Below are positions 1,281 through 53,571 of a stretch of DNA of 54,673 bases, piece by piece (position 1 is the stretch's first letter; the number at the start of each line of letters is the position of its first letter). The notes beneath the pieces were generated by a model. It made no database searches. It was not told where the DNA came from and was given only the letters and a program-made list of their open reading frames with translations. Source of the DNA: a virus (lineage: Duplodnaviria; Caudoviricetes). Made by a program: the position numbers and the translations under genes. The stretch covers positions 1-54,673 of IMG/VR virus record IMGVR_UViG_3300042860_002166. One strand, given 5' to 3'.

Positions 1281-2604
1281 TCCGCTATTGTTTGCAACGT
1301 ATGCGAGCGCGGGGAAGTGGAAGCCTCAGCGGCATCTAGCTTACATCGACCGGAAGATCACGGACGCGCTCTCAGGCCGGGGGTCGAAGCGGTTACTCGT
1401 CACGATTCCACCGCGCCATGGCAAATCGGAGTTTATCTCCAAATGGTTCCCGGCGTGGTTCGTGGGGATGTATCCGAATAAGCGAGTCATGCTCGCCAGT
1501 TACGAGGCAGATTTTGCGGCTGGCTGGGGGCGTAAGGCGCGGGCGATTCTTGAGGAATGGGGGCACTTGTTCGGTGTTCAGGTAGACCCGGCTTCTCGCG
1601 CGGCAAATCGCTGGGGGATTCTCGGCGCGAGTGGCGGGATGCAAACTGCGGGAGCTGGTGGCCCACTTACGGGCTCGGGCGCAGATATTCTCGTGGTCGA
1701 TGATGCAATCAAAAATTCTGAGGAAGCGGGATCCGACACGATCCGCTCAAAGCTCTGGGATTGGTGGCTCTCGACAGCCTACAGCCGAATCGAGCCGGGC
1801 GGAACTGCGATTGTCCTGCATACGCGATGGCACGAGGACGACCTGATCGGGCGTCTGATTCAGGAGATGGATAACGGGGGCGAGCCTTGGGAGGTGATTA
1901 ACTTCCCCGCGATAGCCGAGGAGCATGACGTACTAGGCCGGAAACCGGGGGAGTCGCTTTGGCCCGCGCGGTACGACGAAAAAGCTCTTGAGCGGATCAA
2001 GAACACTATCGGCCCCTACTGGTGGTCGAGCCTGTATCAGCAGAGACCGAGCCCGCTAGAAGGTGGGATGTTCAAACGGGAATGGTTCAAGGTGGTCGAG
2101 GAGCCGGGGAAGATTGTTAAGCGCTGCCGGTACTGGGATTTGGCGGCTACTCAAGGGGGTGGGGATTACACGGTAGGCGCTTTAATTGGACTAAATGACG
2201 AGGGGGATTATATACTTCTCGATGTGGTGCGCGGTCAGTGGGAGCCTCACAGGCGTGACGCGATCATTCAGGCTACGGCAGCGAGTGACGGGCGGGAAGT
2301 GATGGTCCGCGCGGAGCAAGAGCCGGGAGCCTCGGGCGTGGCACAAATTGACGCGATGACTCGAAGGCTGACGGGGTATCGGTTCAAGGGTGAGAAGGTG
2401 ACTGGGGACAAGGTAGTCCGGGCCGACGCGGCATCAAGCCAAGCGGGCATCGGGCGGATTAAGTTACTCAAGGGGGAGTGGAATCGGGCGTTCCTTGACG
2501 AGGTGACGATGTTTCCCAATGGGAAGCATGATGACCAAGTGGACGCCTTTAGCGGGGCGTTTAACGCGCTAACCAAACCAGTATCTAGTTTCTGTGTAGC
2601 ATAG
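1261..2604 (+). CDS. terL: terminase large subunit
   Basis: Walker A-like PPRHGKS, Walker B-like ILVVDD, TRWHEDDL, nuclease motifs YWDLA and HDDQVDA. Confidence 0.95.
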   Translation: MVPQIASPLLFATYASAGKWKPQRHLAYIDRKITDALSGRGSKRLLVTIPPRHGKSEFISKWFPAWFVGMYPNKRVMLASYEADFAAGWGRKARAILEEWGHLFGVQVDPASRAANRWGILGASGGMQTAGAGGPLTGSGADILVVDDAIKNSEEAGSDTIRSKLWDWWLSTAYSRIEPGGTAIVLHTRWHEDDLIGRLIQEMDNGGEPWEVINFPAIAEEHDVLGRKPGESLWPARYDEKALERIKNTIGPYWWSSLYQQRPSPLEGGMFKREWFKVVEEPGKIVKRCRYWDLAATQGGGDYTVGALIGLNDEGDYILLDVVRGQWEPHRRDAIIQATAASDGREVMVRAEQEPGASGVAQIDAMTRRLTGYRFKGEKVTGDKVVRADAASSQAGIGRIKLLKGEWNRAFLDEVTMFPNGKHDDQVDAFSGAFNALTKPVSSFCVA

Positions 2605-2616
2605 GATATTTTAGGT

Positions 2617-5600
2617 ATGCCAAGGTCTGAAGAAATCGCAAAGGCAATGGCTGAGATGGACCGCTTTAATCAGCAGCCCCGCGCTACTGTTATCGAGGAG
2701 CGATACGAGAAGCGCGTAGCGAGCGTGGGCGGTTCCTATGGCGGGCTGGCTGAGCTAATGAGCCAAGGCAGGCCGGGCAATTGGGCGAGCGACCACAAGG
2801 CAGAGGCAGAGAAATACTCGGGCTGGCATTACGTGGCGATCTCGGCTATCGGCAAGGCGATCCGCTCCTGTGATGTTGAAGCCTACCAAGAGCCGGTAAG
2901 GGAATACTCCAAGGCTTACAACGCGGAGGATGATGATTCGGCTCCGCTTCCGAAGTGGCATCCCCTGATGAAGATTCTGAAGCGGCCTAGCGCGAGTCAA
3001 TCGGGCGCGAGCTTCCGGGAAGAGGTGGCTATCCAGCTTTGCCTCACGGGCAGCGCTTTGATCTGGAACGTGCCAAACCAAATGGGCCGGACGGTCGAGC
3101 GGTACATCATCCCTACGGCGATTGCCGAACCAAGACAACCTGAGAAGGGACTTCCCAAGGGCGGCTGGTACATTAACCCCGAGGTAGCCCGGTGGCAGGT
3201 AGAGAATGGCTGGTTCCTTTACACGGGACTAGCGCAGGCTATCGGCAAGGTAATCGACGCGCGAGACGTTCAGGTTATCCGGTTCATTCACCCGACCTTT
3301 AAGGATGAGGGGCAGAGCCCGGTTAGCGCGGGCGCCTTGTGGACTGACACGAGCGAGAAGATTGACGTATCCCGCCACGCCCACTTGCGGAACGGTTCCG
3401 ATCCCTCAGTGATTATCGGGATTGATGGGGTCGAGGACGAATCGACTCTCCAGCGAATGAGCGCGAAGTTCAATGAGAAATACGCTGGACCGAGCAAGCA
3501 CGGGAAAGCGATGTTTGTGAACGGGCAGAATGTCAAGGTGGAGCCGGTAACGCGGACTCCTGCCGAGATGGCCTATGAGGGGGCGTTCGCTCAGTTCCGG
3601 GACGCGATTATGGCGCTGCATGGGGTAACGCCTATCGCAGCCGGTATCGAAGCGCCTAGCGGTGATGATGGGCTCTACGCGCCGCTGAAGCAGTTTATCG
3701 CGGGAACGGTTCAGCCGATTCTCGACCTTATGGCGGAAGAGGATACCGAGCAGCTCGCTAGTCAGTTTGGCGAGGGGCTGACGGTCTTCTACACCGCTCG
3801 ATCTATCGACGACGCAAAGCTGACCGAGCAGCAAATTAACACCGATATCGCAGCCGGGGCGATTGAGGTAGACGAGATCCGCAAGCTCCGAGGGAGGAAG
3901 CCGTGGGGCGGTGAGAAGGGGAAAGCGGTAGCCGGGCAGGGACCGAAGCAGGAAGGGCCGGGAGGTCTGCCGGGTCTGAATCAGGGGGTTCCGGGATTAG
4001 ACGCGCCAAAGCCTCCAGCAGGCCCACAGGCGAGCGTTCCGGGTCAGCCCGCCCAACCAGCCAAGACACCGGAACAAATCGCAGAGGAGGCCGTAGCGAA
4101 GGCTCTAGCGGCCTTTGAGGATAGGATATCGGTCTTGCTCAAGAGTGGCAGCGATTGCGGCGCGAACGGTCCCGGAGGCGGAGGGTTTCAGGCTGGCAAC
4201 GATTGCGGGGGAAAGCGGGGAGGCAAATGGAGTGAAATGGCCGGTGGTGCAGGGGCAATCGCTGAGGCGGAAAATCAGATTCGCGGCTCCAAGTCAGAGG
4301 TTGCTGTTATTTTTAACCCTGACGGTAAAGAGCTATTTCGGGTGAACGGGATCGAGAATAAGGTAAAATTTACCGATCAAGAATATTCAAAATTTAGCGG
4401 CAAGATTATTACGCACAACCATCCGAGCGATTCAGGCCAACTGGGAACAACTTTTTCCGACCAAGATTTAGCCCTTGCCATAAATGCCAACTTAAAAGAA
4501 TTAAGGTTGGTTGGTTTAGACGGGTCTACTCATTCAATAAAACCATCCGGGGAATCTTGGCCGGATCTTGACGATGTGAATTCAGCCCTAAAAAAAGAGA
4601 GAGCGAAGCTAAAAAAAGAAATCAAGGCTGGCAAGCGTTCTATGTTTGATAACGTAACGCGAATATCTCTGGAAAATGTCTCCGCCAGACTTGGTATTAG
4701 TTATACGCAAGAAAGCAACCGTAAAGCCAAGTCCCTCTCCAAGAGCGCTGACGGATGTGGCGCCAATGCACAGGGCGGAGGTGGATTCCAGCCCGGTAAT
4801 ACTTGTGGGAAGCGGGACGGTAGCGAGGGGGAGTCTCAGGGCGGAGACGCCCGCAAGGTAAACGCTAAGGTACTGGCGTGGGCGAAAGAGAAGTTCGGTG
4901 ACGAGAAGGTAGCAGAGAACTTCGTGCGGTGGTTCGGTGATTCCAAGGTAGTCGATGATGACGGGAACCCGCAGATAGTTTATCACGGAACTACTGGAAA
5001 GTTTGAAAATGTTTTCGACCCAGCAAAGGGGGAGCTAGGAAATCACTTTGGAACTCAGGAAGTAGCAGATGGTTTTGCATCTCGCTTCAATGAATCTGGC
5101 AAGGGAAATCGCGTTTACCCTGCGTTTCTGTCAATAAAAAATCCTTTGAAGATGGTTGATAAGGGCCAATGGGATAACCTTCAAGTTTTGGAGACTTTGG
5201 TCGCCAATGGAAAGATGACACAGAAAGAGGCTGACGACTGGCAATCAGGATTTCAAGAAAGATGGTCGGCTCATAACTGGAAGAGTGGGCCTTACCCGCG
5301 ACAGCAAGAGACAGTGAATTTACTTTCGTCTCATGGGTATGACGGCATAGAATATATCAATCGACGGGAAGGGATTAAACTCCCAAAGGACTTATCTGAG
5401 AATACCAGCAGGCTTAATGGGCTCTCGGATAATGAGTTTCTTGAGCGAGTGCCAAACGCTACCACGAGCTATATCTCTATCTACCCCAATCAAATCAAGT
5501 CCGCTACGGGCAACTCAGGGACGTTCGACCCCGACAATCCGAACATAACCAAGAGCGCTCCCTCAGAGGGCTATCGGCCTCCAGTCTCGGCACAGAGCAA

Positions 5601-7989
5601 CGCGAGAAAAGTCCTTCGATGGAAGCGCGAACACGGGGACGCGGTACAGGGGATGACCGCGACGGGTTGGGCTCGGGCTCGGCAGCTCGCAAGCGGGAAG
5701 AAGGTCAGCCGGGAGACGGTGGGCCGAATGGCGGCATTTGCGCGGCATCGAAAGAACAGCAAGGTAAACCCCAAGTTCCGCGCTGAGCCGTGGCGAGATG
5801 CGGGATACGTGGCGTGGCTGGGCTGGGGTGGTGACTCGGGGATCAACTGGGCAGCGGGAATCGTGGCTGGTGAGGGGAAGAGCGGGAGTGACTGCGGGGC
5901 GAATCAGCCGGGAGGTGGCGGCTTCCGCGCGGGCAACACTTGCGGGAAAGAGGACGGCGGCTCAGGTGATTCGGGTAGCTCGAAGGTTCGCCAGTGGGCA
6001 GAAAAGAAGTTTAAGGACAAGCAGACCGCCGAGAACTTTGCTAAGTGGTTCGGGGACTCTAAGTTTGTTGACGAAAACGGCGAACCGATAGCCGTGTACC
6101 ACGGGACTTCTACGGGGTTCACGGAGTTTCGCAATACAGGGGCAAGGCTTCCGTCAATTGGTTACGGGTTTTACTTTTCACCAGATGCGGACGTTGCATC
6201 GACTTATGCGACAGGAGAAACCCCGCAGGTAATGCAGGTTTACTTGCAAGCGGACAAGGTTTTAGACTGGGATAACCTAAGCAAGTCTGACCGGGAAGCA
6301 GTTGAAAATAGATTGGTCGGTATTGTTCCAGATGACAGGCTAGCTGGTTTTGGTTCGCCGCAGCAGCGGGCATTTTCTAGAGAGCAAGACGATGAAGCCG
6401 AGGCGTTTTATAGGAAAAAAAAGAAAGAGACCGCTCACCTGTACCATGACCGCGCGAAGGCTAGAGTAGATTTTACTGAAGATGGTACGGTGATTTCTTG
6501 GATGGAGCCGGGGCTTGGTAGCGCAACCGATAGCAACCTGAGAACGCTGGCGCAAGAATACGATATGCAGATTGGCGAATCGCTTGGCTATGATGCTGTC
6601 AGAAGCGGTCTTGAGATTGTCGTATTCCGCCCCAATCAAATCAAATCGGCTACCGGCAACTCAGGTGCTTTCTCGCCGGACTCCCGAGATATCACGAAGT
6701 CCTCTGGCTGCGGTGCTAACGCTCAAGGCGGTGGCGGATTCCAGCCGGGTAATACCTGCGCGAGAGAGGACGGGGGCGGAGATGAATCGGGCGACGATTA
6801 CCGAGGAAACCATCGGGCGCCGGGAAGGGATTCAGGCGCCCCCCTCCATGATGTGACCGGGAACGGGGAATACTACCCTGATGATATCTACGGCCCGAAG
6901 GCTGTAAGGCTCTACAACACTGGGAGCGGGAATAAAGAGATGGACGCCAAGTCTATCAAGATTATTCAGTCTCTCCGTGGAAAGCCGGATGCTGAGGTGA
7001 CGATCTACCGAGCGGTTCCGAAAGACACAGATGGAAAAATCAATCCCGGTGACTGGGTAACGATTAACCGTGATTACGCTGTCACTCATGGCGAGGGGCC
7101 GCTTCGTGGCGAATATAGGATAATGGAGCTGAAGGTTCGCGCGTCTGACGTTTTCACTAGCGCGGACAGCATCCACGAGTACGGCTACGACCCTGCCGAG
7201 CGCTCTAAGTCCGGCTCAGACTGCGGCGCCAATGCCGAAGGGGGTGGGGGATTTCAACCGGGAAATAGTTGCGCGAGAGGTGATGGCTCTAAGAGTGGAG
7301 CCGGTGTAATCATTAACGCAAAAGACGCCGCAACTGCCATCGCAAAAGAGGTAATCAAATGGGCGGAGAAAATGAAGCAACAAGATCGGTTGGCTGGGGA
7401 AATGCCGACAGAGGAAGAAGTTAAACAAAATTGGATGAAGCTGTTTCGTAGTCGAAAGCTAAACGAAGGCGACAAAACGGCATTTGCAGAATTGAACCCT
7501 GAGCTAGAATCCTCGATACGCGATGCGGTACAGCAAAACAGCTCAAACCCTGCTTTTCAGGAATTTGTTAAAATTCACGGCGAGTCTCCCGTTATTTACC
7601 GGCGCCAAGAAAAAGGACGAAGCCCAGCAGCGGAATACCGAGGGGTGATTCACGTTTTCGACTCCCCTTTCTGGAAGGGCGAGGGAACGGATGAGCTAAA
7701 ACCGGGCAAGGCTACAGCCGGTGGCATGGGAGGCTATGCGGCTGTCATTCGGCATGAATACGGCCACAAGCTATACGGCGGGCTGACTGTTGACCAGCAA
7801 AGGGAGTGGAGTGGTCTAGTCTCCGCAGTCAAGGATGTAGGAAAAGGTTTAACATCCTACGCAACAAAGAACCCAGAAGAAACATTTTGCGAGTTGTTCG
7901 CGGTTACGACAGACAAGCGATTTAATCCGAGCAGTTTCCCGGATTGGGTGAATCAATTAAGGATTAAACAGAGAGAGTGGTTATTATGA
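2617..7989 (+). CDS. portal protein (about aa 1-440) fused to a roughly 1280-aa multi-module effector extension
   Basis: Follows TerL. HK97-like portal motifs (HPLMKILKRP, LCLTGSALI, GQSPVSA, VDEIRKLRGRKP), then a Pro/Gly linker and repeat-delimited modules. Confidence 0.9.
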   Translation: MPRSEEIAKAMAEMDRFNQQPRATVIEERYEKRVASVGGSYGGLAELMSQGRPGNWASDHKAEAEKYSGWHYVAISAIGKAIRSCDVEAYQEPVREYSKAYNAEDDDSAPLPKWHPLMKILKRPSASQSGASFREEVAIQLCLTGSALIWNVPNQMGRTVERYIIPTAIAEPRQPEKGLPKGGWYINPEVARWQVENGWFLYTGLAQAIGKVIDARDVQVIRFIHPTFKDEGQSPVSAGALWTDTSEKIDVSRHAHLRNGSDPSVIIGIDGVEDESTLQRMSAKFNEKYAGPSKHGKAMFVNGQNVKVEPVTRTPAEMAYEGAFAQFRDAIMALHGVTPIAAGIEAPSGDDGLYAPLKQFIAGTVQPILDLMAEEDTEQLASQFGEGLTVFYTARSIDDAKLTEQQINTDIAAGAIEVDEIRKLRGRKPWGGEKGKAVAGQGPKQEGPGGLPGLNQGVPGLDAPKPPAGPQASVPGQPAQPAKTPEQIAEEAVAKALAAFEDRISVLLKSGSDCGANGPGGGGFQAGNDCGGKRGGKWSEMAGGAGAIAEAENQIRGSKSEVAVIFNPDGKELFRVNGIENKVKFTDQEYSKFSGKIITHNHPSDSGQLGTTFSDQDLALAINANLKELRLVGLDGSTHSIKPSGESWPDLDDVNSALKKERAKLKKEIKAGKRSMFDNVTRISLENVSARLGISYTQESNRKAKSLSKSADGCGANAQGGGGFQPGNTCGKRDGSEGESQGGDARKVNAKVLAWAKEKFGDEKVAENFVRWFGDSKVVDDDGNPQIVYHGTTGKFENVFDPAKGELGNHFGTQEVADGFASRFNESGKGNRVYPAFLSIKNPLKMVDKGQWDNLQVLETLVANGKMTQKEADDWQSGFQERWSAHNWKSGPYPRQQETVNLLSSHGYDGIEYINRREGIKLPKDLSENTSRLNGLSDNEFLERVPNATTSYISIYPNQIKSATGNSGTFDPDNPNITKSAPSEGYRPPVSAQSNARKVLRWKREHGDAVQGMTATGWARARQLASGKKVSRETVGRMAAFARHRKNSKVNPKFRAEPWRDAGYVAWLGWGGDSGINWAAGIVAGEGKSGSDCGANQPGGGGFRAGNTCGKEDGGSGDSGSSKVRQWAEKKFKDKQTAENFAKWFGDSKFVDENGEPIAVYHGTSTGFTEFRNTGARLPSIGYGFYFSPDADVASTYATGETPQVMQVYLQADKVLDWDNLSKSDREAVENRLVGIVPDDRLAGFGSPQQRAFSREQDDEAEAFYRKKKKETAHLYHDRAKARVDFTEDGTVISWMEPGLGSATDSNLRTLAQEYDMQIGESLGYDAVRSGLEIVVFRPNQIKSATGNSGAFSPDSRDITKSSGCGANAQGGGGFQPGNTCAREDGGGDESGDDYRGNHRAPGRDSGAPLHDVTGNGEYYPDDIYGPKAVRLYNTGSGNKEMDAKSIKIIQSLRGKPDAEVTIYRAVPKDTDGKINPGDWVTINRDYAVTHGEGPLRGEYRIMELKVRASDVFTSADSIHEYGYDPAERSKSGSDCGANAEGGGGFQPGNSCARGDGSKSGAGVIINAKDAATAIAKEVIKWAEKMKQQDRLAGEMPTEEEVKQNWMKLFRSRKLNEGDKTAFAELNPELESSIRDAVQQNSSNPAFQEFVKIHGESPVIYRRQEKGRSPAAEYRGVIHVFDSPFWKGEGTDELKPGKATAGGMGGYAAVIRHEYGHKLYGGLTVDQQREWSGLVSAVKDVGKGLTSYATKNPEETFCELFAVTTDKRFNPSSFPDWVNQLRIKQREWLL
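4141..4209 (+). repeat. module-delimiting peptide repeat 1 (KSGSDCGANGPGGGGFQAGNDCG)
   Basis: Translated in frame. One of six copies. Confidence 0.95.
4210..4740 (+). other. portal-extension module A: JAB/MPN-like metallo-domain
   Basis: E...THNHPS-x-TFSDQD fits the JAMM pattern E-HxH-S-xx-D. AT-rich relative to flanks. Confidence 0.65.
4741..4809 (+). repeat. peptide repeat 2 (KSADGCGANAQGGGGFQPGNTCG)
   Basis: Translated in frame. Confidence 0.95.
4810..5556 (+). other. module B: ART-PolyVal-like ADP-ribosyltransferase domain (variant catalytic residues)
   Basis: F-x-x-WFGDSKVVD-x-G-x-P-x-VYHGT ... LSIKNP ... GYDGI ... PNQIKSATGNSGTFD, the signature of ARTs in phage polyvalent proteins. 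Confidence 0.75.
5557..5877 (+). other. module C: small conserved helical phage domain of unknown function
   Basis: GWARARQLA...TVGRMAAFARH...GYVAWLGWGGDSG. Resembles a domain I recall fused to phage head proteins. Bounded by KS sites. Confidence 0.5.
5878..5946 (+). repeat. peptide repeat 3 (KSGSDCGANQPGGGGFRAGNTCG)
   Basis: Translated in frame. Confidence 0.95.
5947..6696 (+). other. module D: second ART-PolyVal-like ADP-ribosyltransferase domain
   Basis: WFGDSKFVD...VYHGT...GFYFS...ASTYA...GYDAV...EIVVFRPNQIKSATGNSG. H-Y-E-type residues appear present. Confidence 0.8.
6697..6762 (+). repeat. peptide repeat 4 (KSSGCGANAQGGGGFQPGNTCA)
   Basis: Translated in frame. Confidence 0.95.
6763..7206 (+). 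other. module E: polyvalent-protein-associated domain, possibly ART-like fold
   Basis: VTIYRAVP...INPGDWVT...YAxxHG...HEYGY. The YR...T...E spacing is reminiscent of ARTs (inference). Confidence 0.4.
7207..7275 (+). repeat. peptide repeat 5 (KSGSDCGANAEGGGGFQPGNSCA)
   Basis: Translated in frame. Confidence 0.95.
7276..7989 (+). other. module F: zincin metallopeptidase (HExxH...E)
   Basis: VIRHEYGH followed by SYATKNPEETFCELF, a lethal-factor/MPTase-like pattern. Confidence 0.75.
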
Positions 7990-9779: not shown

Positions 9780-10613
9780 ATGCCAGACGACCCCAACAGA
9801 CTAGACAACGAGGCCAAACTCCAGACGGTGATCATGGCGCTCCTGCTCGACCTTGAGCAAGCGGCGCTCTCCCGGCTCGGGGATAGGCCGATGATGGACG
9901 ACCTGCCGCAGTGGTTCTACGCGCAAGCCAAGCAGATGATTAAGGTCGAGGTGGCGCCTATCCTCAAGGATGTAGCCTTTGACGCGGCAATCCGAACGGG
10001 CGATGAGCTGGGCTGGGACTTGAACGCTATCGGGATCGCCTCAGAGATTAACCGGAGGATTGATAACCAGTCTACGCTCTTGGCTGAGTCGATTCTCACG
10101 AAGCTCCAAAAGCAAGTAGGCGACCGGGTGCGGCAGGTCCGCGCGGGTGAGCTGGCGCTGGGCGCTTATCTGTACATGCTCTGGGGCGAGAAGTTCCCGG
10201 AGTCGGTGAGCATTACCGAGACCACGCGGGCTATCTCAGCGGGTGAGAACGCGACCACGAGAGAGCTGGAGCGAGAGATTGCTCAGCGGCGCCGCGAGGT
10301 GCTAGGTGGTGACGGAGTGGCTGAGGGATATGAGCCGGATGATTCCGAGACGGTAGGCGGGACCAAGCCGGGTGAATCAGCAGCGCCGAAGCCTAGCGAG
10401 ACGGGTACGCCAAGTAGACCACGTAGGCCGATGGCGGATCTCAAGCTGCTCAAGGTGTGGCATACTCAGCGGGATGAAAAGGTCTGCAAGATCTGCGGGC
10501 CACTCGAAGGAAAGAACCAACGATTCTGGGAGGATAAATTCCCTAACGGCCCTCCGGGACACAATAATTGCCGCTGTTTTCTAACCTACCAAGTAATAGG
10601 GACCGGGCTTTGA
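9780..10613 (+). CDS. head morphogenesis protein, MuF / SPP1 gp7 family
   Basis: ITETTRA, KVWHT..DEKVCKICGPL, PPGHNNCRC. Confidence 0.88.
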   Translation: MPDDPNRLDNEAKLQTVIMALLLDLEQAALSRLGDRPMMDDLPQWFYAQAKQMIKVEVAPILKDVAFDAAIRTGDELGWDLNAIGIASEINRRIDNQSTLLAESILTKLQKQVGDRVRQVRAGELALGAYLYMLWGEKFPESVSITETTRAISAGENATTRELEREIAQRRREVLGGDGVAEGYEPDDSETVGGTKPGESAAPKPSETGTPSRPRRPMADLKLLKVWHTQRDEKVCKICGPLEGKNQRFWEDKFPNGPPGHNNCRCFLTYQVIGTGL

Positions 10614-10789: not shown

Positions 10790-10974
10790 CTCCGGGCCAG
10801 TTCCGCAACTTCGATTCGCAGGCTGTAGGCGAGTTCCTCTATCGTGGACTCGCGGGCCTGAATCATCTTTATCTCGCCAGCCGGTATCTCGAAGATTAGC
10901 TCGGCGTAGTACCAGTGGTAGCATCTCCAGAGGCGGAGTTCGCCGTATTCGAGTAGGTCTTGTAGTTCGTTCAT
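10786..10974 (-). CDS. hypothetical protein
   Basis: ATGA-coupled to 10971..11216, with GGAG-like SD. Confidence 0.6.
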   Translation of the reverse strand: MNELQDLLEYGELRLWRCYHWYYAELIFEIPAGEIKMIQARESTIEELAYSLRIEVAELARS

Positions 10975-11965: not shown

Positions 11966-11976
11966 TTGCGGGCATC

Positions 11977-12273: not shown

Positions 12274-12286
12274 TTGGGTTCTCCGG

Positions 12287-42340: not shown

Positions 42341-42352
42341 AACACTGATATC

Positions 42353-43824: not shown

Positions 43825-43834
43825 GAGATTTATT

Positions 43835-44344
43835 ATGTGCGACTTTATAGGATTTACGTCCTACGTTAATACTGGGCCGGTCTCGAAGATTGCGATTGAC
43901 AATCAGAGCGAGGCGGGCTGGTCCATGATTAGCGTGACCTATGACTTTACACCACAGTTTGAGCTAGGCGGATTGACCAATCAGCTCTCTCCGGGGCTGT
44001 ACGGGCTGGAGACAATCGTTACCGCGAGTGGTAATCAGTCATTCACCGGCTACAGCATCTCAGGCCAGAGCATGACTTGGACATTTAGCGGAATGGGTTC
44101 AGGTGAAGGGACTGGTTGGAAGTTGCCTATCGGCGGTGGTATCAGGGGTGGTGAGATTAACGGCACGACAATCTCGGCTCAGTTTACAAATGGGTCCGAG
44201 TCCCGTGAGGTCGAGTATCAATTTTCTGGCGTGACTGGCAACGGTGTCAGTTTTTACGCCAACGCTTCAGTGCCAGAACCTAGCGGCATCGCGTTAATCG
44301 GGATGCTCGTTGGTGTTTTGGTTGCACGGTTCCGCAGCCGGTAA
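43835..44344 (+). CDS. PEP-CTERM domain protein
   Basis: C-terminal VPEPS, then a TM helix, then basic RFRSR. Confidence 0.85.
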   Translation: MCDFIGFTSYVNTGPVSKIAIDNQSEAGWSMISVTYDFTPQFELGGLTNQLSPGLYGLETIVTASGNQSFTGYSISGQSMTWTFSGMGSGEGTGWKLPIGGGIRGGEINGTTISAQFTNGSESREVEYQFSGVTGNGVSFYANASVPEPSGIALIGMLVGVLVARFRSR

Positions 44345-45029: not shown

Positions 45030-45041
45030 ATATAGGATAAC

Positions 45042-45536
45042 ATGGCTAAAGCACGGAAGCCGCTGAAGCGTAAGACACCACTAAAACGAACGCCGCTCAG
45101 GAGAACAGCCACCAAGAAAAAGCGTAAGCCAGTCGGAAGCGTGGCGGCGCTCAAGAAAAAGGCTTGGGAGTTATGCTCTCGCGCGATACGTTTGGAGGCG
45201 CGGGAAGATGATGGGCTCGTGACCTGCATAACTTGCGGCGTTCGCTTGCCGTGGAACCGGGGGATACAGGCCGGGCATTTCATCGACGGGAGATATAACG
45301 CGATTTTGTTCGATGAGCGCGGGATTCATCCGCAGTGTATGGGCTGTAACGTCATGCTCAACGGTCGGAAGGAAGAATACTTCGTTTGGATGGAGTCGGA
45401 GTACGGGCGCGAGGTGATAGATGAACTGAGACGGCAAAGGAATGAGAGCCGGAGTTTTTCGGCTGAGGAGCTGCTGAAAATGATGGATGAATTCAAGTTA
45501 AGGATTAACAACTCGATAGGGAGGCTGGGGCTGTGA
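45042..45536 (+). CDS. ninG: NinG/Rap-family recombination endonuclease
   Basis: CITCG...QAGHF.......FDE..IHPQC..CN....G....Y. Confidence 0.9.
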   Translation: MAKARKPLKRKTPLKRTPLRRTATKKKRKPVGSVAALKKKAWELCSRAIRLEAREDDGLVTCITCGVRLPWNRGIQAGHFIDGRYNAILFDERGIHPQCMGCNVMLNGRKEEYFVWMESEYGREVIDELRRQRNESRSFSAEELLKMMDEFKLRINNSIGRLGL

Positions 45537-45949: not shown

Positions 45950-46612
45950 GTGTATCTCCTTCGCGCCCTCTCGTGCGGTGTGATTGTACTATTCTCGCAG
46001 ACGGCCTTTTCTCAGGTCGGCAAGGAAACTACCTACTGGAATTGGACCGAGCCTAGTGAGTTGCATAAGGCGGTTGTCCGGGTAAAGGTCCAAGGTTCTC
46101 AGGGTATGAGCTGGAGCGGTAGCGGGTCGGTAGTCGATGGTGGCCGGATAATTACGGCGGCGCACGTTCTTGATCAGGGTGTTTCTTTTTCGGTTGAGTT
46201 TTTTGATGGCACAGTGGCAAGCGGCAAGGTAATTAACCTTAATACGAAAGTAGATGTAGGTGTTCTGAGCTGTGAAGTGCCAAGCGGAGTAACCGTCCTT
46301 AAAGTGGCAGAAAATCCTCCCGAGGATGGGTCTTACGTGGAGATTTGTGGGTTTGGTGGCAGTGGTCCGCTACGTCACTTTTCTGGTCATACGGGCATCT
46401 ATTCCGATGATGTTCTCGGGGTCGATGCTTACGTGATACCGGGTGATTCTGGCGGCTGTGTGTTGAATGAAAAAGGCGAGCTAGTCGGCGTGGTCTCTGG
46501 TGGCATGTGCTGGAGTAGCTCGAAGGTAGTCAAGTCCAGCGGCTCAACGATGAAGGCTACGTGGCCGGTTCGCTGTGGCGGTCTTGGTGCAATCAAGCAG
46601 GCGCTCAAATGA
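45950..46612 (+). CDS. secreted trypsin-like serine protease
   Basis: Signal-like N-terminus; ITAAHV, DVGVL, GDSGG. Confidence 0.92.
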   Translation: MYLLRALSCGVIVLFSQTAFSQVGKETTYWNWTEPSELHKAVVRVKVQGSQGMSWSGSGSVVDGGRIITAAHVLDQGVSFSVEFFDGTVASGKVINLNTKVDVGVLSCEVPSGVTVLKVAENPPEDGSYVEICGFGGSGPLRHFSGHTGIYSDDVLGVDAYVIPGDSGGCVLNEKGELVGVVSGGMCWSSSKVVKSSGSTMKATWPVRCGGLGAIKQALK

Positions 46613-46821
46613 ATGGGCCAAAAGATGATTTCCCAGACGATTTCGAGTCTGGTAGGTTAGCTTACTTGGCTGGGCGTGATCAGGGTGATTGTCCTTACCG
46701 GCATGACAAGAAAGAGATCCCGGATTATAGGCCGGGACAGCGGAGAGCTTGGCTGGCGGGCTGGCTCGAAGCGGCGTATTTTACCGATTACTGGAGGCGA
46801 AAACTTGAACGCGAAAAATAG
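46609..46821 (+). CDS. ribosome modulation factor (Rmf)-like protein
   Basis: G..A..AGR....CPY.......R.AWL.GW.EA pattern of Rmf. Confidence 0.7.
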   Translation: MNGPKDDFPDDFESGRLAYLAGRDQGDCPYRHDKKEIPDYRPGQRRAWLAGWLEAAYFTDYWRRKLEREK

Positions 46822-47488
46822 GATATTGGGTCTTGTGTTGGCGCTGATTCCGGCGATGTGCTGGGCTCAGCTCAAGGTCGAGATCCCCAAGCAGGTAGGC
46901 GAGCATCAATTAGCGGTTATCAAGGTCGAGGCCGGAGACGGGCTAGAGGTTGATGTAGAGGTTTGGAAAAGCCTTGATCAATCCGTTTCCTACCGTGAAC
47001 TGAAGGCGGCAAGCGGGCGAGAGTTTGGCTTCGTCGCGCCTCCCGGTGAGTATTTTGTGCGAGTGTACGGCTGGAAAGCCGGGAGCGTGGAAAAGTATAG
47101 CGGCAAAGTGGTTATCGGCGGACCTCCTCAGCCGGAGCCGGGGCCGATTGACCCAGTTGACCCGGATAATGGATTAACCGGGCTGGCGAAAGTCTCGTAT
47201 GAGGCAGCGATGAAGGTGTTCAGTGTAACGCGCGAGCAGGAAGCGAAAGAGCTGGCCCGCGTTTATTCGTCCGTATCTTCTCAGTCGGCTGCGCTACCAA
47301 ACATGACAGCGGCACAAATGACTCAGCAGGTGCGCGAGAGTAACCGCGATTCAATGAATGATGAGGCAAAGGCGGCTTGGTCCTCGTGGGCGGCTGTCAT
47401 ATCTAGGGAGCTGGAGACGGTCTCGGATAAGCAGAAATTGATCGAGGCTTACCGGGATATTGCTCGCGGGCTGGAAAAGGTTAAGTAA
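46805..47488 (+). CDS. secreted protein: Ig-like domain, Pro-rich linker, helical domain
   Basis: Signal peptide ending AMCWA-Q; PPQPEPGPIDPVDP linker. Confidence 0.7.
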   Translation: MNAKNRILGLVLALIPAMCWAQLKVEIPKQVGEHQLAVIKVEAGDGLEVDVEVWKSLDQSVSYRELKAASGREFGFVAPPGEYFVRVYGWKAGSVEKYSGKVVIGGPPQPEPGPIDPVDPDNGLTGLAKVSYEAAMKVFSVTREQEAKELARVYSSVSSQSAALPNMTAAQMTQQVRESNRDSMNDEAKAAWSSWAAVISRELETVSDKQKLIEAYRDIARGLEKVK

Positions 47489-47497
47489 GGAGGCGAT

Positions 47498-49471
47498 ATG
47501 AGTTTTGACCGTATGGAGGGGTGGGTTCCCCCTGAAGAGCGAACCTACGAAGTAGCGAAGCGGCATGATGAGATCGTGAGTTTTGCGAAGCTGTTCTGTA
47601 CGGCAGCGGCGCCGCTCTCAGATACCGGCAAGGGGAAGGTAGTTCTCTTGTGGAAGGCGCTAGAAACGGTGATTAAGGGTCCGCTCCCGCCTCGGGCTCA
47701 GGCGATTGGAGATTGTTTCGCTGCGGGGACAATCGTTCTCGGTGAGCAAATCAAGCCCATTGAGCAAGTAGCGGTAGGCGATATGGTCTGGACCGCTGAG
47801 GGGAAGCAAGCTCGGGTTATTTCGACTCGGGAAATTGTCACCGATAAGCGGGCGGTTACGGTAAAGGCTTTGGGATCAATGCCTATCGTATGCACCGAGG
47901 ATCATCGGTTTTTGGTCTATCGAATGGGCAAGGTATGCGGCAAGCGGGTTACGCAAAAATACTACCAGCGAGCCATGGCTGGCACGGCGGGCGTTAGCCC
48001 TAAAGTGGTCGAGCGTTATAACGCAAGAGAAGCGGTTTGGGTTCGTGCGAGTGAACTACAGACAACTGACTATCTTTTGACGCCAGCCAATATCAAGCAA
48101 CTACCAACACCACAAGATCCATTTGGATTCTCGAAGGTTGAGGACGGGTTGTTTACGCTCGGTTATTTTCTTGGAGATGGTCACGCCAGCGGCGCGACTG
48201 TTGAGATTGTAGTGGCTTCTGGGGAGATTCAGTCCCGGATCTGCAAGGTGTTTGAGTCTCTTGGGTATCGGTACGTTGTCGAGTTGAATCACAAGGGCTC
48301 GACGGCAAATCGGATTCGGGTTAATTCAAGAGAGCTTGTTAGTTGGTTTCGGGAGACCTTTTACACCAATGACAAGTCGAAGAACTTCCCCGGCTGGGCT
48401 GTTGGTTGCTCTGAGGTTATCGAGGGGCTGCTTGAGTCCGATGGTTGCGATCTCAAGAGCGAGGGCTTTTGTATCGACACCACGAGCCATTCGATAGCTT
48501 ACGGCGTATTTCAGTCTTTGGCTTGCTTGGGTTTCGTTCCATCAATGGGTGAAAATAAACGAACAAACACTTACGCAAATCCAAAGAAGCTCTACCGCGT
48601 TATCTGGAAGGCTGAGCGAGAGCGTGAGGTGGTCTGGACGGATGGCGAGTACATTTGCCGACCAGTAAAATCAGTAAGCATCGGTGAACCCGGAATGACG
48701 GTATACGATATCGGTGTTGAGGATGATCATCATTCGTTTATCGCTAACGGGGTTGGGGTTCATAATTGCGTTAGCTGGGGTTTTGGTCATTGCGTAGACG
48801 TACTCTCAGCGGTTGAAATTGTCCTTCGCGGTGAGGCAGAGCAGTATCTCGCGGAGTGTGCGACCGAATGGATCTACGGTACAAGCCGGGTGATTCAGGG
48901 TGGCGGGCGATTGCGTAACTCCGATGGCTCGCTTGGTTCGTGGGCTCAGGCTGCGGTTAAGGAAAATGGAACGCTGATCCGCAAGGATTACGGTAGCGGG
49001 GTAGACCTCCGCAAGTATTCCGGGGACCGCGCGAAGGACTGGGGTTTTCGTGGCTTGCCGCACGAGATGGAAAAGATTGCGGATGAGCATCCGGTTGAGA
49101 CTACCGCGCTCGTCACAAGCTACGAGGAGGCTCGGGACTCAATCGCTAACGGGTATCCGGTCGCGGTTTGCTCTGGTGTCGGATTCACGATGGAGCGGGA
49201 CTCTGAGGGATTCTGTCGGCGCAAGGGTAGCTGGGCTCATTGTATGGCGTTTACCGCAGTAGACGACGCTCACCGCAGGCCGGGCCTACTCTGTCAAAAC
49301 TCGTGGGGTGATTACGTTGGCGGTCCAACTCGACACGGCCAGCCGGTGGGTTCGTTCTGGGTAGATGCGGACGTAGCCGACGCGATGCTTAGGCAGAATG
49401 ACAGCTACGCGCTTTCGGGATTCAAGGGATACCCGAAGCAAGTAGACAAACTCGATCATAGGCCGTGGTAA
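47498..49471 (+). CDS. papain-like (C1) cysteine protease containing an intein
   Basis: Spliced sequence reads QAIGD/CVSWG; catalytic WAHCM and QNSWG present. Confidence 0.9.
   Translation: MSFDRMEGWVPPEERTYEVAKRHDEIVSFAKLFCTAAAPLSDTGKGKVVLLWKALETVIKGPLPPRAQAIGDCFAAGTIVLGEQIKPIEQVAVGDMVWTAEGKQARVISTREIVTDKRAVTVKALGSMPIVCTEDHRFLVYRMGKVCGKRVTQKYYQRAMAGTAGVSPKVVERYNAREAVWVRASELQTTDYLLTPANIKQLPTPQDPFGFSKVEDGLFTLGYFLGDGHASGATVEIVVASGEIQSRICKVFESLGYRYVVELNHKGSTANRIRVNSRELVSWFRETFYTNDKSKNFPGWAVGCSEVIEGLLESDGCDLKSEGFCIDTTSHSIAYGVFQSLACLGFVPSMGENKRTNTYANPKKLYRVIWKAEREREVVWTDGEYICRPVKSVSIGEPGMTVYDIGVEDDHHSFIANGVGVHNCVSWGFGHCVDVLSAVEIVLRGEAEQYLAECATEWIYGTSRVIQGGGRLRNSDGSLGSWAQAAVKENGTLIRKDYGSGVDLRKYSGDRAKDWGFRGLPHEMEKIADEHPVETTALVTSYEEARDSIANGYPVAVCSGVGFTMERDSEGFCRRKGSWAHCMAFTAVDDAHRRPGLLCQNSWGDYVGGPTRHGQPVGSFWVDADVADAMLRQNDSYALSGFKGYPKQVDKLDHRPW
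47714..48766 (+). mobile_element. 351-aa intein with LAGLIDADG homing endonuclease
   Basis: Starts CFAAGT. Block B CTEDHRF, LGYFLGDG and EGLLESDG, ends VYDIGV...HSFIANGVGVHN before the +1 Cys. Confidence 0.95.
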
Positions 49472-50081: not shown

Positions 50082-50301
50082 AGCTCAACTAAACATCGCG
50101 TGGATGTGGGACTGTGATAACTGCGGAGAGGAAAACTTCGAGCGGTCATATTCGCCCGAGATTGACCCGGAAGACTTAGCGGAAATCGCTGTAGAAAACG
50201 GACACGATCCCGACGCAATGCTTTGCGCGTTTCCGTTCGAGGTGAAGTGTTTCAACTGCGGGACTGAGTACGATACTGAGATATCTGGGGAGGCGGAATG
50301 A
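50074..50301 (+). CDS. small zinc-finger protein
   Basis: WDCDNCGEENF...CFNCG. Confidence 0.65.
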   Translation: MSKAQLNIAWMWDCDNCGEENFERSYSPEIDPEDLAEIAVENGHDPDAMLCAFPFEVKCFNCGTEYDTEISGEAE

Positions 50302-50948
50302 TTTGGTTTGTTTGGTGTGTGATGCTGGCTCAGGATTTCGTGCCGCTCCAGTCTGAGGACTTACGGATCGTCGAAAGGATTCGGTCGATTGAGTCCCGGC
50401 TCGATGAGCAGATCAGCCTATGGCCCGCCCTTGAAACGATCCGGCGCGAGCTGGCAGAGTCTCGCAAGGAACGGGAGGAGATTCGCGGGATACTATCGCG
50501 GTTCGATTTAACGGCACTGAGAGACGCGGTAAGCGAACTGGGTAAAAGGTCAGCCGATGAACGGGCTGGCATCCTCAGCGCAATTCTAGGCGGTAAAGAA
50601 TCAATCCTAGAGGCAATTAAGCCCGTCAGTGGAATCCTTGATGAGGTCCGCGCTAACCGTGCGGAAATGGCACAACTAAAAAACGGTCTGTTTTCTGGGT
50701 TGGCTGAAGTGCGCGCGGAAGTAATTCGCGCCAAGGCGGAGTTGACGGAGGCGAAAAGCAAACTGATTGAGGCACAGGCGGAGTTAGCCGCAATCCAAGG
50801 GAGTCTCGGCCAGCGGTTCTTCTGGTTTACGATCTACCTTGTCGGTGGGTGTGCGGTTTTGCTCATTGGTGGCACACTTGTTATAGGTTTTGTGTACGCG
50901 AAGCTAGCCAAGTTGATCAATCAGATTCCATTTCCAAAGGTGGTCTAA
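50298..50948 (+). CDS. coiled-coil membrane protein
   Basis: Hydrophobic N-terminus, long heptad region, C-terminal TM helix. Confidence 0.7.
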   Translation: MIWFVWCVMLAQDFVPLQSEDLRIVERIRSIESRLDEQISLWPALETIRRELAESRKEREEIRGILSRFDLTALRDAVSELGKRSADERAGILSAILGGKESILEAIKPVSGILDEVRANRAEMAQLKNGLFSGLAEVRAEVIRAKAELTEAKSKLIEAQAELAAIQGSLGQRFFWFTIYLVGGCAVLLIGGTLVIGFVYAKLAKLINQIPFPKVV

Positions 50949-51148
50949 TGGAGTTTGTGGGCTGGTACTTTCTCAGTGGCCTAATTTTCGTGATGATAGG
51001 ATATTTGGCCTTGCCCTTAGACTCGATGGAGTCTAAATTAAAAGACCAGATAAGCTATACGCTCGGGGGAGTGTTGTTATTGGTGTTTTGGCCTGCTCTT
51101 CCCCTTGCTGCGCTGGTATCGGCGTGGAGAAAGATACCTAAGCGATGA
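50948..51148 (+). CDS. small two-TM membrane protein (holin-like candidate)
   Basis: Two hydrophobic helices and a basic C-terminus. Confidence 0.5.
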   Translation: MEFVGWYFLSGLIFVMIGYLALPLDSMESKLKDQISYTLGGVLLLVFWPALPLAALVSAWRKIPKR

Positions 51149-51525
51149 ACGATTTTGTTAAATGGCTAGGCGGTTTGTTTGCTGGATTGTTTAAGAACGT
51201 CAGCATTACGCCAGATACCAAGGATGATTACGAGGCGGTACTCAAGGGCGGCGCGACGGTAAACACGGAGTGGAGCAAACTTTACCAGACGATGAGCGAG
51301 CAACTTAAAATCGCACTGGTTCGCGTGGACACCTTAGAGAAAGAGTGCAACGACACACGCGAGCAGCTCACTTGTGCGATTAAGAAACTGAATCAAGAGT
51401 ATATCGACTGTGAGAATCATCGCGCGATGGCGGCATCGGAGATTGCAGAACTGAAGCGACAGAATGGGCGGTTGGTTAAACGGATTGAGGAGCTGGAGGC
51501 TGAGGTAGCCACGCTCAGGAAGTAG
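51145..51525 (+). CDS. coiled-coil protein with amphipathic N-terminus
   Basis: Heptad pattern; ATGA coupling. Confidence 0.65.
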   Translation: MNDFVKWLGGLFAGLFKNVSITPDTKDDYEAVLKGGATVNTEWSKLYQTMSEQLKIALVRVDTLEKECNDTREQLTCAIKKLNQEYIDCENHRAMAASEIAELKRQNGRLVKRIEELEAEVATLRK

Positions 51526-52086: not shown

Positions 52087-52316
52087 TGAAACTGACAGAG
52101 ATCGCAAAGCAGAAGGTTCGCAGGTCGGGGGAGGCGAGTTGGTTTGAGTCGCTAACCAAGTCGCAGCAGGAGGAGATTAAGGGGGAGCTGAAGCGGTGGG
52201 GTAATGGCCCGCTATCCCCGTTTGCCTTGGCGGTGATCGAGAAGTTTAAGCTGAACCGTAAAATTCCTTGTATCCGCGAAACTCTGAGGGCAATCCAAAA
52301 TGGCAAACTTAGCTAG
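52086..52316 (+). CDS. hypothetical protein
   Basis: Coupled to neighbouring genes. Confidence 0.6.
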   Translation: MKLTEIAKQKVRRSGEASWFESLTKSQQEEIKGELKRWGNGPLSPFALAVIEKFKLNRKIPCIRETLRAIQNGKLS

Positions 52317-53361
52317 TCTTGCGGCGTCGAAGGTGGAAGAGGCTCGGAAGTTTGGCGCTGAGCAGCGGCTCGATAGCCAGTTACGAGCGGCAAAGAGCCT
52401 GATCACTGACCTGAGAAAGTCGGTTGAGTCTCGGGATAAGCAGATCTCGGCGCTGGAGCAAACGATTGACCTGATTTGCCTAATGGAGGACACCCGAAAA
52501 AAGGCAGAGAAAATCATCGTCCCCAAGAGCAAGGCAAATGAAGCGGTTCCGATCTTCCTGTGGTCCGATTGGCACGTAGAGGAGATGGTGGACCGGCGCA
52601 AGACGCTTGGGAAAAACGAATACAATCTCAAGGTAGCAGAGGCTCGGGCAAAGCGATGCGCGGAATCGACGGTGAAGATGATTCGTCACGCTAGGCTAAG
52701 CAGTCACGTTAGGAGCTGTCTGCTAGTTCTCGGAGGGGATTTCATTACGGGTGATATTCACCAAGAACTCTGCGAGACAAATTTACTTGGTCCAGCGGAG
52801 GCTTGTGTATTTGCCCGCGAGCTTCTGGCCTCTGGACTGGAGGCGATCCGGGCGGAGAAGTATCTCCAGAAAATCCGCGTGGTCTGCATTGTCGGGAACC
52901 ACGGACGCACGACAAAAAAGATGCAGTTTAAGAACGGGACGGAAAAGTCTTTCGAGACCATTATCTACGCTGAGCTTGCCCGGATGTTTACGGATAAGCG
53001 GTTTGAGTTCACGATTGCCCGAGGTGGTGTTGAGATGGTCCCGATGGCTCCGGGGTTTGATATCCGCGCGTTCCACGGTCATCAAGTAAAGTACCAAGGT
53101 GGAATCGGCGGGCTAACGATTCCGCTTACGAAATGGATTCACCGGCAAGACCAAACCCAGAGCGCCGCTTGGAATCTAATGGGTCACTGGCATCAGTACG
53201 GGCTCCCTACTCCGCGCTGTTTGTGCAACGGATCGATCAAGGGCTGGGATGAGTACGCGGCGGAGCATGGGTTCGGGTTTGAGCCTCCTCAGCAGGCTGG
53301 CGCTATTTACGACGCGAGCCGATCAAGGATCGGTGGCGTGTTCCCGATTTACTGCGAGTAG
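52300..53361 (+). CDS. calcineurin-like metallophosphoesterase
   Basis: SDWH, GGDFITG, GNHG, HGH, GHWH. Confidence 0.9.
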   Translation: MANLASLAASKVEEARKFGAEQRLDSQLRAAKSLITDLRKSVESRDKQISALEQTIDLICLMEDTRKKAEKIIVPKSKANEAVPIFLWSDWHVEEMVDRRKTLGKNEYNLKVAEARAKRCAESTVKMIRHARLSSHVRSCLLVLGGDFITGDIHQELCETNLLGPAEACVFARELLASGLEAIRAEKYLQKIRVVCIVGNHGRTTKKMQFKNGTEKSFETIIYAELARMFTDKRFEFTIARGGVEMVPMAPGFDIRAFHGHQVKYQGGIGGLTIPLTKWIHRQDQTQSAAWNLMGHWHQYGLPTPRCLCNGSIKGWDEYAAEHGFGFEPPQQAGAIYDASRSRIGGVFPIYCE

Positions 53362-53571
53362 TCCTCCGGTAGTACCATAGGATGACAAGCCAGATATCTT
53401 CGTCATCATCATCATCGAAGTCGTCCATAGCGGTTACTCCAGAGGTAGCCGCATTATCCCAAGGACGGGCTGAAAAAGGCAAAGGGAAAATTAGCCATCG
53501 TTTGATTTGACAGAAAAGGCTGAAAAAAAGCACAATATGCCCTGATAGGATATACAAACTAGGGGCAATCT

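Follow-up and report, generated by a model that had tools for sequence, protein, structure and literature searches.

A sharply defined 9-mer oriented with transcription across the genome of a temperate-looking phage: a candidate stoperator-like DNA site

The window analyzed here is the whole of the virus record IMGVR_UViG_3300042860_002166 (Duplodnaviria; Caudoviricetes), 54673 bp long with 54% G+C, and the element under study is the 9-mer ATAGGATAT, which occurs in it in 18 exact copies. Open reading frames (ORFs) cover 94.8% of the genome, and their assignment to families is based on 100 Pfam and PHROG protein scans that took in most of the listed ORFs, some of them with both libraries. The recognizable genes include a terminase (1261-2604), a portal/ART-PolyVal fusion ORF (2617-7989), a MuF-like gene (9780-10613), the capsid (14655-15932) and tail tube (20186-21085) genes, YqaJ, SSB and ERF (31745-33895, minus strand), a CsrA homologue of 66 aa (34155-34355, minus strand; Pfam E 3e-15), a NikA-like RHH protein (35300-35497), a weak tyrosine-integrase-like gene (35494-36348, minus strand), an XRE-family protein of 163 aa (36610-37101, plus strand) with two HTH_3 domains (residues 20-71 and 95-152), HNH (37275-37700, minus strand), an N6/N4 methylase (37700-38866, minus strand), a helicase (40503-42071, minus strand), a pyrophosphatase (43507-43824), a NinG-like gene (45042-45536), an intein-bearing protein (47498-49471) and an exonuclease (52300-53361). 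Judging by this gene content, the phage looks temperate because the integrase-like gene is adjoined by a stretch that resembles the 3' half of a tRNA (T-arm and acceptor, approximately 36540-36578) and separates it from the XRE gene. ARAGORN detects no tRNA gene at 36540-36578; the stretch, which recurs in the related genome G001 (see below) upstream of the XRE gene there, is likely to be the attP core.

All 17 copies of ATAGGATAT that a first-pass annotation had located by eye proved to be exact matches at the positions and on the strands given; its count of at least 17 was thus sound as far as it went, with one further copy (50996-51004, plus strand, between ORFs 50298-50948 and 51145-51525) having been overlooked. 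The chance expectation is 0.10 copies in dinucleotide-preserving shuffles and 0.20 under an order-3 Markov model, both below the approximately 0.4 copies that had been assumed, and under the Markov model no other 9-mer in the genome is as strongly enriched as ATAGGATAT, so that the enrichment against a Markov background that had been proposed as a check is indeed found. When up to one mismatch is allowed, 33 sites are present against 5.5 expected, with an excess of about 10 sites at one mismatch; sites with exactly two mismatches number 71 against approximately 76 expected (10 first-order Markov simulations), that is, they are not enriched. Because the two-mismatch forms show no excess, the specificity of the motif is sharp, and this sharp definition sets it apart from ordinary host promoter or Shine-Dalgarno elements.

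These numbers bear directly on the possibility that the motif is a compositional artefact of stop codon, Shine-Dalgarno sequence and start codon meeting at gene junctions, without a dedicated function. The motif does contain TAG, AGGA and AT(G), and several copies serve as a stop or a start. However, 18 copies are found where 0.1 are expected, a T at a fixed distance downstream is conserved, the motif is kept amid diverged flanks, and some copies lie far from starts or inside genes (all detailed below). An origin from stop and Shine-Dalgarno composition alone, which the first-pass annotation had put forward as the explanation that would undo the motif, fails because the two-mismatch forms are not enriched and because the usual ribosome-binding sites of the phage are of the GGAG type (GGAG, GGAGG or AAGGAG, with a gap of 6-8 nt); we give it next to no credence.

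Alignment of the 18 copies reveals an upstream flank without conserved bases and a distinct downstream extension. With offsets counted from the first A of the motif as 0, T is found at offset 15, seven bases past the motif, in 16 of the 18 copies; C, G and G at offsets 9-11 are present in 10, 10 and 12 copies, respectively, and C at offset 14 and A at offset 16 in 10 copies each. Given the conserved downstream T and CGG and the bare upstream flank, the footprint is asymmetric and spans approximately 16-17 bp. The outer ATA and TAT arms of the 9-mer are symmetric, so that the asymmetry stems from the central GGA and the downstream CGG..T; the TAnnnT pattern is likewise symmetric on both strands. 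Some copies share longer flanks, namely ATAGGATATcgagact at 11368 and 12534, GTATTCGC-N8-ATAGGATATcggaagta at 13270 and 35205, and ATAGGATTTtgtaNNtag at the variant sites 39389 and 40244 and at two sites of G001. The composite ATAnnnTAT-N8-GCGAAT matches five times against 0.22 expected, whichever strand carries the central triplet GGA (12520-12542, 12859-12881, 13256-13278 and 35191-35213 on the minus strand, and 6558-6580 on the plus strand); in two of these matches the 9-mer is the plus-strand motif read backwards. The GCGAATA(C) part may be a second signal or a common leader of minus-strand transcripts.

The copies are tied to gene junctions and to the direction of transcription. Three of the 18 are intragenic, and the other fifteen are found at junctions or ahead of starts that are probably genuine. 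Orientation follows the local genes in all 16 exact copies for which it can be judged, and the copies at 13270 and 35205, in divergent gaps, are ambiguous, both as previously proposed; the sense orientation extends to 15 of 15 one-mismatch sites, and the two-mismatch sites are divided between approximately 33 sense and 29 antisense (counted by hand from the listing). The motif is real, selected and linked to the direction of transcription. Its copies occur in all functional modules, whether early, recombination, replication or structural, and do not mark a single temporal class.

At four junctions the upstream gene terminates in the TAG of the motif: at 2601-2609 (plus strand) it ends the terminase gene and the portal ATG (2617) follows 7 nt on; at 12534-12542 (minus strand) it ends ORF 12539-12814 (minus strand), as part of a repeated module that continues with N8-GCGAAT; at 42348-42356 (minus strand) it ends ORF 42353-42958 (minus strand), and the ATG of the next gene is 7 nt on; and at 46818-46826 (plus strand) it ends ORF 46561-46821, with a likely true GTG start at 46835 that precedes a signal-peptide-like sequence. 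Right after a TAG stop lies the copy at 38874-38882 (minus strand), 7 nt from the methylase ATG (38866), and the copy at 13386-13394 (plus strand) stands before the first gene of the structural operon (protease/scaffold position), 9 nt from the ATG at 13404. In the capsid gene (14648-14656, plus strand) and the tail tube gene (20179-20187, plus strand), the motif is inserted between the ribosome-binding site (AAGGGA and AAGGAAA, respectively) and the ATG (14655 and 20186), which takes the last two bases of the motif. The start assigned to the capsid gene can be relied on, since three homologues (56-59% identical) keep the N-terminus from M1 onward. Hence the closeness to the portal, protease, capsid, tail tube and methylase starts that the first-pass annotation had pointed out is borne out, with the ATG either 7-9 nt past the motif or overlapping it.

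Other copies keep a greater distance from starts. The copy at 11368-11376 (minus strand) overlaps the TAA that ends the preceding gene on that strand, with the next start approximately 150 nt on; that at 34778-34786 (minus strand) lies about 14 nt past the stop of ORF 34801-35154 (minus strand); that at 34110-34118 (minus strand) lies past the terminator-like hairpin that ends csrA, with AAGGAG and an ATG (34083) downstream; and that at 53545-53553 (plus strand) is found 8 nt past a promoter-like site, TTGACA-N18-CACAAT (by eye), with the next ATG 27 nt from its first base. Both copies in divergent regions are on the plus strand and abut leftward promoter-like sites. The copy at 13270-13278, in the region that heads the structural operon, is next to TTGCAG-N18-TACAAT (by eye); the copy at 35205-35213, between ORF 34801-35154 (minus strand) and the RHH gene, also lies upstream of the best sigma-70-like promoter of that region (35236-35263). 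Full transcription of these two copies in motif orientation is unlikely. The intragenic copies are located inside the 1790-aa portal/ART-PolyVal ORF (4121-4129, plus strand; codons D-R-I-S), in the 3' part of the XRE gene (37016-37024, plus strand) and inside the 3' end of ORF 43073-43510 (43407-43415, plus strand; the pyrophosphatase start is 100 nt from the first base of the motif), and in all three Arg is encoded by AGG and Ile by ATA, both infrequent choices (13% of Arg and 12% of Ile, respectively). The 4121 copy is exact in G001 even though the flanking codons differ; here, an in-frame TTG (4135) lies 14 nt from its first base, just past the portal part, so that the tail part of the protein might be made separately.

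Among the variants, ATAGGCTAA (two mismatches; 12873-12881, minus strand) belongs to a paralogue of the 12534 module and lies approximately 60 nt before a gene with an AGGAG ribosome-binding site. The one-mismatch forms are AAAGGATAT (28733-28741, plus strand), which is followed by cgg and whose first base is 24 nt from the start at 28757; ATAGGATTT, at a gene junction (39389-39397, minus strand) and again at 40244-40252 (minus strand); and ATAGGATAA (45032-45040, plus strand), 1 nt before the ATG of the NinG-like gene.

The distance to the start codon is relevant to another alternative, a start-associated translation signal similar to the SAS repeats of cluster K mycobacteriophages, i.e., an RNA element at the position of the ribosome-binding site with a phage or host reader other than CsrA. 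Seven of the 18 copies are within 20 nt of a start, and the motif is the sole source of AGGA in three genes. On the other hand, eight copies are intragenic or separated by over 60 nt from the nearest start, and the spacing is variable: measured from the first A of the motif, the start is at 7 in the capsid and tube genes, at 16 in the portal, methylase and 42340 genes, at 17 for 46835, at 18 for the protease, and at 27 and 35 in two further cases, with the remaining copies at 60-150 or without a start. Structural genes are included as well, and the normal ribosome-binding site of this phage is the GGAG type with its gap of 6-8 nt. We regard a signal of this kind as improbable.

The strict sense orientation, together with the tolerance of any position within a transcription unit, would also suit an elongation-control signal that the moving polymerase reads on the non-template strand or in the nascent RNA, whether a pause or antiterminator-loading site (ops/RfaH-like or Q-like) or a cleavage site for a RegB-like RNase, and a -10-like sequence could induce sigma-dependent pausing. 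Yet known ops and qut sites occur once or twice per operon rather than 18-28 times, and no NusG/RfaH-like, Q-like or RNase gene was recognized in the Pfam and PHROG scans of most ORFs, which renders this option quite improbable.

More weight attaches to a phage-specific promoter that would consist of a single -10-type element, TAGGAT (TAnnnT), used by the host RNA polymerase with an unrecognized phage factor; transcripts would begin 4-8 nt downstream, yielding leaderless or near-leaderless mRNAs where the ATG is 7 nt past the motif. TAGGAT has the A in second and the T in sixth place that characterize a sigma-70 -10 box, and the key hexamer positions are kept in relatives. A -35 match was found only at the 40244 variant, where TTGACA (40274-40269) precedes TAGGAT by 17 bp in what is the clearest promoter-embedded copy (40274-40246), and at the 34110 copy, past the csrA hairpin, where the arrangement is TTGATT-N16-TAGGAT (six and four of the six -35 bases, respectively). 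An ATG exactly at offset 16, 7 nt past the motif and without another ribosome-binding site, is seen at four independent junctions; T-A at offsets 15-16 resembles a start dinucleotide; the repeated minus-strand modules have the layout motif, approximately 50 nt, ribosome-binding site and ATG; and the TAnnnT symmetry would suit the two divergent regions. Against this, the 18 exact copies show no -35 signal (the mean best match to TTGACA 16-18 bp upstream is 2.17 of 6, compared with 2.37 at 20000 random positions). In the capsid and tube genes, where the motif separates ribosome-binding site and ATG, transcription would begin past the start codon and hence inside the ORF, although these copies are conserved across lineages. 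No sigma factor, RNA polymerase, Q-like protein or late activator was found in the 100 scans, with many ORFs being family-less, so that a very divergent factor may have escaped notice. The copies are in all modules rather than in one temporal class, and host-type sigma-70 sites would not produce an exact 9-mer without a two-mismatch tail. Accordingly, the earlier suggestion of a TAGGAT -10 box fits both places named for it, 40246 and 34112, but not the motif in general, and a promoter as the general function appears rather unlikely, if less so than the other alternatives. Two wastewater runs labelled RNA-Seq (shares 0.14 and 0.05) consist of contigs, probably of DNA, and yield no transcript starts or ends.

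Single-element promoters of this type exist in other phages: the T4 late promoter TATAAATA, read with gp55, and the phiEco32 element TAATGTATA, read with gp36, are -10-type elements of 8-9 bp, near exact, present in many copies without a -35 box and oriented with the genes. T4 and phiEco32 encode their own sigma factor and confine the element to one temporal class; here, in contrast, no sigma factor was found, the copies are in all modules, and two of the conserved ones share bases with a start codon. Several other known signals were considered and dropped: a MotA-box-like (-30) element (by eye, no T at offset 20), a sigma-28-like promoter (by eye, no TAAA at 15 bp), an IHF site, a DnaA box and extended anti-Shine-Dalgarno pairing (poor fits by eye), an EcoRV site (GATATC occurs 44 times in the genome and just 10 of these are within the motif), and Chi-like or nick sites (the orientation flips with gene blocks).

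Conservation was assessed in two sets of relatives. The IMG/VR record G001 (56.8 kb) is syntenic with the phage, its proteins are mostly 55-89% identical, and it contains 12 exact copies. In the nine copies at matching positions, 81 of 81 motif bases are identical, compared with 381 of 540 (70.6%) in the 30-nt flanks (P ~5e-13); the copies at 2601 and 20179 are among those exact in G001. The variant counterparts in G001 are ATAGGTTAT twice (one of them at the 34778 site), ATAGGGTAT and, at the 35205 site, ATACGATAT; the 46818 site reads ATAGGATAA. In the near-identical fragments L108, L109 and L112, the copies are kept and the intergenic flanks have changed. The most informative comparison is with L110 and L111, two independent contigs of a closer lineage (capsid 92% identical, DNA approximately 80-82%); their sites read ATAGGTTAT (13270), ATAGGCTAA (13386), TTAGGATATG (capsid), ATAGGTTATG (tube, L111) and ATAGGGTAT; the core TAGGnTA is present in all five of these matching or related sites. 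Over 22 comparisons of matching sites, no change is seen at positions 1, 2, 4, 6 and 7 (T1, A2, G4, T6 and A7), and position 5 varies most (18 of 22 identical).

This pattern bears on the idea, first among those advanced in the first-pass annotation, that the motif is an RNA target of the phage CsrA. Under this hypothesis, AUAGGAUAU would be a high-affinity GGA site near translation starts that controls the portal, protease, capsid, tube, methylase and other genes. CsrA/RsmE sites contain GGA flanked by A/U, lie in the sense strand and are commonly close to a start codon; AGGAU.U is, moreover, similar to the consensus obtained by selection for CsrA binding. The encoded domain is bona fide and retains R44; G001 encodes a 41% identical CsrA at the matching place (39919-40050). 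GGA is present in all 18 copies, the judgeable ones in sense, with seven of them within 20 nt of a start. However, in the relatives the matching sites read GGT, GGC, GGG or CGA in place of GGA while the rest of the element stays, as in ATAGGTTAT, ATAGGCTAA, ATAGGGTAT and ATACGATAT; GGA is found in just one of the five L110/L111 sites and is replaced in four G001 sites, which argues against CsrA as the reader. Of 12 minimum-free-energy folds of 60-nt windows (such folds being weak evidence), only two leave GGA entirely unpaired or place it in a loop; no promoter that would transcribe the 13270 and 35205 copies is evident upstream of them; and the GCGAAT composite is indifferent to the strand of the central triplet. 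CsrA sites are, furthermore, normally degenerate and present in multiples, not single exact 9-mers as here. We therefore disfavor the CsrA hypothesis and hold it to be a long shot; a virus-encoded CsrA regulon over the phage's own genes, in which the GGA-less sister versions would be read otherwise or be decaying, is similarly doubtful. Were it correct, the 34155-34355 protein would be expected to prefer RNA AUAGGAUAU over AUAGGUUAU or a scrambled sequence.

Of the three functions originally proposed, a DNA operator fits best, and we extend it to a genome-wide set of operator and stoperator sites. Tentatively, and with a likelihood that we put somewhat short of even, ATAGGATAT with the T seven bases on would be an asymmetric DNA site for a phage protein that serves both as operator and as transcription roadblock. 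In this scheme, which is built by analogy, a sequence-specific phage-encoded protein would bind a double-stranded site of about 16 bp; the few copies that overlap or abut promoters, such as those embedded in promoter-like sites at 40244 and 34110, would act as operators, and at most copies, which sit in short intergenic gaps oriented with transcription, the bound protein would halt the elongating RNA polymerase, so that the whole phage genome would be silent in the lysogen. The most likely reader would be the 163-aa XRE protein beside the integrase: with two HTH domains in one chain, it could bind a non-dyad site as a monomer. In the second HTH domain, 15 residues are identical in G001, where overall identity is 55%. 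The operator and roadblock model is the best reading also in that it strains least over the start-overlapping copies, those 60-150 nt away and the intragenic ones. The excess of the motif, its sharpness, orientation, junction placement, conservation and downstream extension are observations; its action on DNA, the roadblock and the role of the XRE protein as reader are inferred from them.

Several observations weigh against this model. The main divergent early region (42958-43073), where a primary operator would be expected, contains no copy with two or fewer mismatches. The exact 7-nt distance to the ATG at four junctions and the T-A at offsets 15-16 would be more natural for a start site or a translation signal. 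A sequence search with the XRE protein against all PDB chains retrieves CylR2 alone (E 0.008), the solved cluster A repressor not being matched; its single-sequence AlphaFold model (pLDDT 55) is too poor for use, and three homologues are available for alignment. The XRE gene contains a sense copy of its own (37016), which G001 lacks. The prior for stoperators is low because they are known just from actinobacteriophages, and among the matches listed in the literature search they are from actinobacterial phages throughout. Finally, the variant sites of G001 are weaker evidence because its assembly is error-prone, with fragmented ORFs, a frameshifted XRE gene and a low-complexity end. The G001 record (L014) opens with approximately 550 nt (1-550) of low-complexity sequence rich in A and G, which breaks up the capsid gene, and frameshifts affect several ORFs of the record.

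The closest parallel is provided by the stoperators of cluster A mycobacteriophages, which, in the passages available from PMC9283540 and PMC6550527, are 20-30 asymmetric sites of 13-14 bp, oriented with transcription, some of them in promoters and most in short intergenic spaces, and are read by a monomer with two DNA-binding domains (L5, TipsytheTRex). As far as these descriptions go, the two systems share many non-dyad copies genome-wide (20-30 there; 18 exact and about 10 variants here), orientation with transcription, a mostly intergenic location with few copies in promoters, and a temperate phage; the candidate reader here also has two DNA-binding domains in one chain, its binding being predicted. 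The differences are a distinct sequence with a shorter core (9 bp and one T instead of 13-14 bp), the absence of a copy from the main divergent early region, a host that is probably not an actinobacterium, the related prophages being in Planctomycetota, and a candidate reader with tandem XRE HTH_3 domains that has no detectable sequence relationship to L5 gp71 or the TipsytheTRex repressor. Given this lack of relationship, the resemblance is an analogy, and the motif set is best filed as stoperator-like in its working, not as a member by descent.

A second parallel is found in the SAS of cluster K, described in the available part of PMC3203893 as 13-bp asymmetric repeats, GGGATAGGAGCCC, with 11-19 copies in one orientation that sometimes hold the upstream stop codon, are not in the host genome, and lie 3-7 bp from starts in the non-structural half. 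As of 2025, the function of SAS was still unverified. To that extent, the motif resembles SAS in its asymmetry, single orientation, ATAGGA core, occasional upstream stop codon and absence from the host genome. It differs in that no match to GGGATAGGAGCCC with two or fewer mismatches is found, ATAGGA alone being common to both (by eye), and in its variable spacing, its eight of 18 copies far from starts or intragenic, and its presence at the portal, capsid and tube junctions. Similarly, compared with CsrA/RsmE sites, the phage element is an exact 9-mer instead of a degenerate GGA, one in which GGA is lost in relatives and, in the predicted folds, is not consistently in a loop. A literature search for the literal 9-mer returned, among the matches listed, none on phage regulation.

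The motif is confined to the clade of this phage. A scan of IMG/VR for ATAGGATATCGGNNNTA retrieved 85 stretches, with several copies per locus only in the phage's own clade; related-locus scans of IMG/VR with the helicase, CsrA and XRE proteins added no relatives, and a scan of genomes with the 13404 protein found nothing. Proteins 92-99% identical to the phage CsrA and XRE are encoded on contigs of 27-34 kb (P0004, P0005 and P0027). The motif was not found in more distant relatives (capsid 47-58% identical) or in prophages of Schlesneria and Pirellulaceae genomes, and a 7.2-Mb Schlesneria genome with related prophages has 0 copies. Such clade specificity speaks for a reader encoded by the phage itself. 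Among genomes, the closest relatives by capsid (48-55% identical) are in Planctomycetota (L149 and L151-L154; Schlesneria, Pirellulaceae), with one complete Schlesneria chromosome carrying two of them, and L150, another capsid relative, comes from a Peribacteria-labelled metagenome-assembled genome. By these sequence matches, a planctomycete host is suggested for the clade. We make no host call because the attP-like tRNA fragment, when used as a host probe, matched just one of 301 sampled Planctomycetota genomes, and that with one mismatch.

Other repeats were encountered in the relatives. G002 and G003 (L017-L021; capsid 58% identical) lack ATAGGATAT and have 10-12 copies of GAATGATAAT, with many TGATAATG overlaps on one side and the reverse complement GATTATCATT in the sense strand on the other; as an analogue of the motif, GAATGATAAT was rejected, many of its copies being TGATAATG stop-start overlaps whose orientation ignores the genes. 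In the 21 kb of L120 (capsid 47% identical), TGGGCAGT is found 20 times where approximately 1 copy would be expected; the contexts vary, and one strand carries 15 of the 20. The Schlesneria prophage relatives L151 (4461-7668) and L153 (1718-1904) have intergenic tandem CTGAAAA heptamers, up to 6 copies, on both strands; the repeats of L120 and of these prophages are motifs of other kinds than ATAGGATAT. In L143 (14400-15600), the repeats AGTTCTAC (11 times) and ACTAGGAGT (7 times), rich in TAG triplets, may represent a repeat protein with a changed code or non-coding repeats.

Some further features of the genome are worth recording. The 107-bp stretch between the two motif copies that head the structural operon (13279-13385) holds a conserved hairpin, TAAGT...ACTTA, in which five pairs are invariant and one is compensatory across 5 sequences, as well as an invariant block TCAATGTTAGAAACG..ATTTGCCG. 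Small family-less genes occupy 10900-13242 (minus strand), between the head-morphogenesis and structural genes, and three of them are preceded by a paralogous intergenic module that consists of the motif or a variant, then TAGCGAATA. In the single 1790-aa ORF 2617-7989, the portal domain spans residues 104-426 and is fused to an ADP-ribosyltransferase 'polyvalent protein' domain at residues 1152-1352. The 657-aa protein 47498-49471 has intein-splicing, LAGLIDADG and Hint matches, and its extein matched no family; the 43733-44344 protein has a weak C-terminal PEP-CTERM sorting motif (E 0.005), which is a feature of host envelopes and unusual in a phage gene.

Genome-wide oriented stoperators and SAS are known just from actinobacteriophages. 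If the stoperator-like reading is correct, the motif would be an independent case from an uncultured temperate phage with prophage relatives in Planctomycetota and with a candidate reader that belongs to another protein family (tandem XRE HTH). Oriented roadblocks that silence an entire genome would then be a recurrent solution and not a mycobacteriophage oddity, and the compact 9+1-bp site would lend itself to work on orientation-dependent blocking of RNA polymerase. Under any mechanism, the motif serves as a marker of regulatory junctions in this phage clade.

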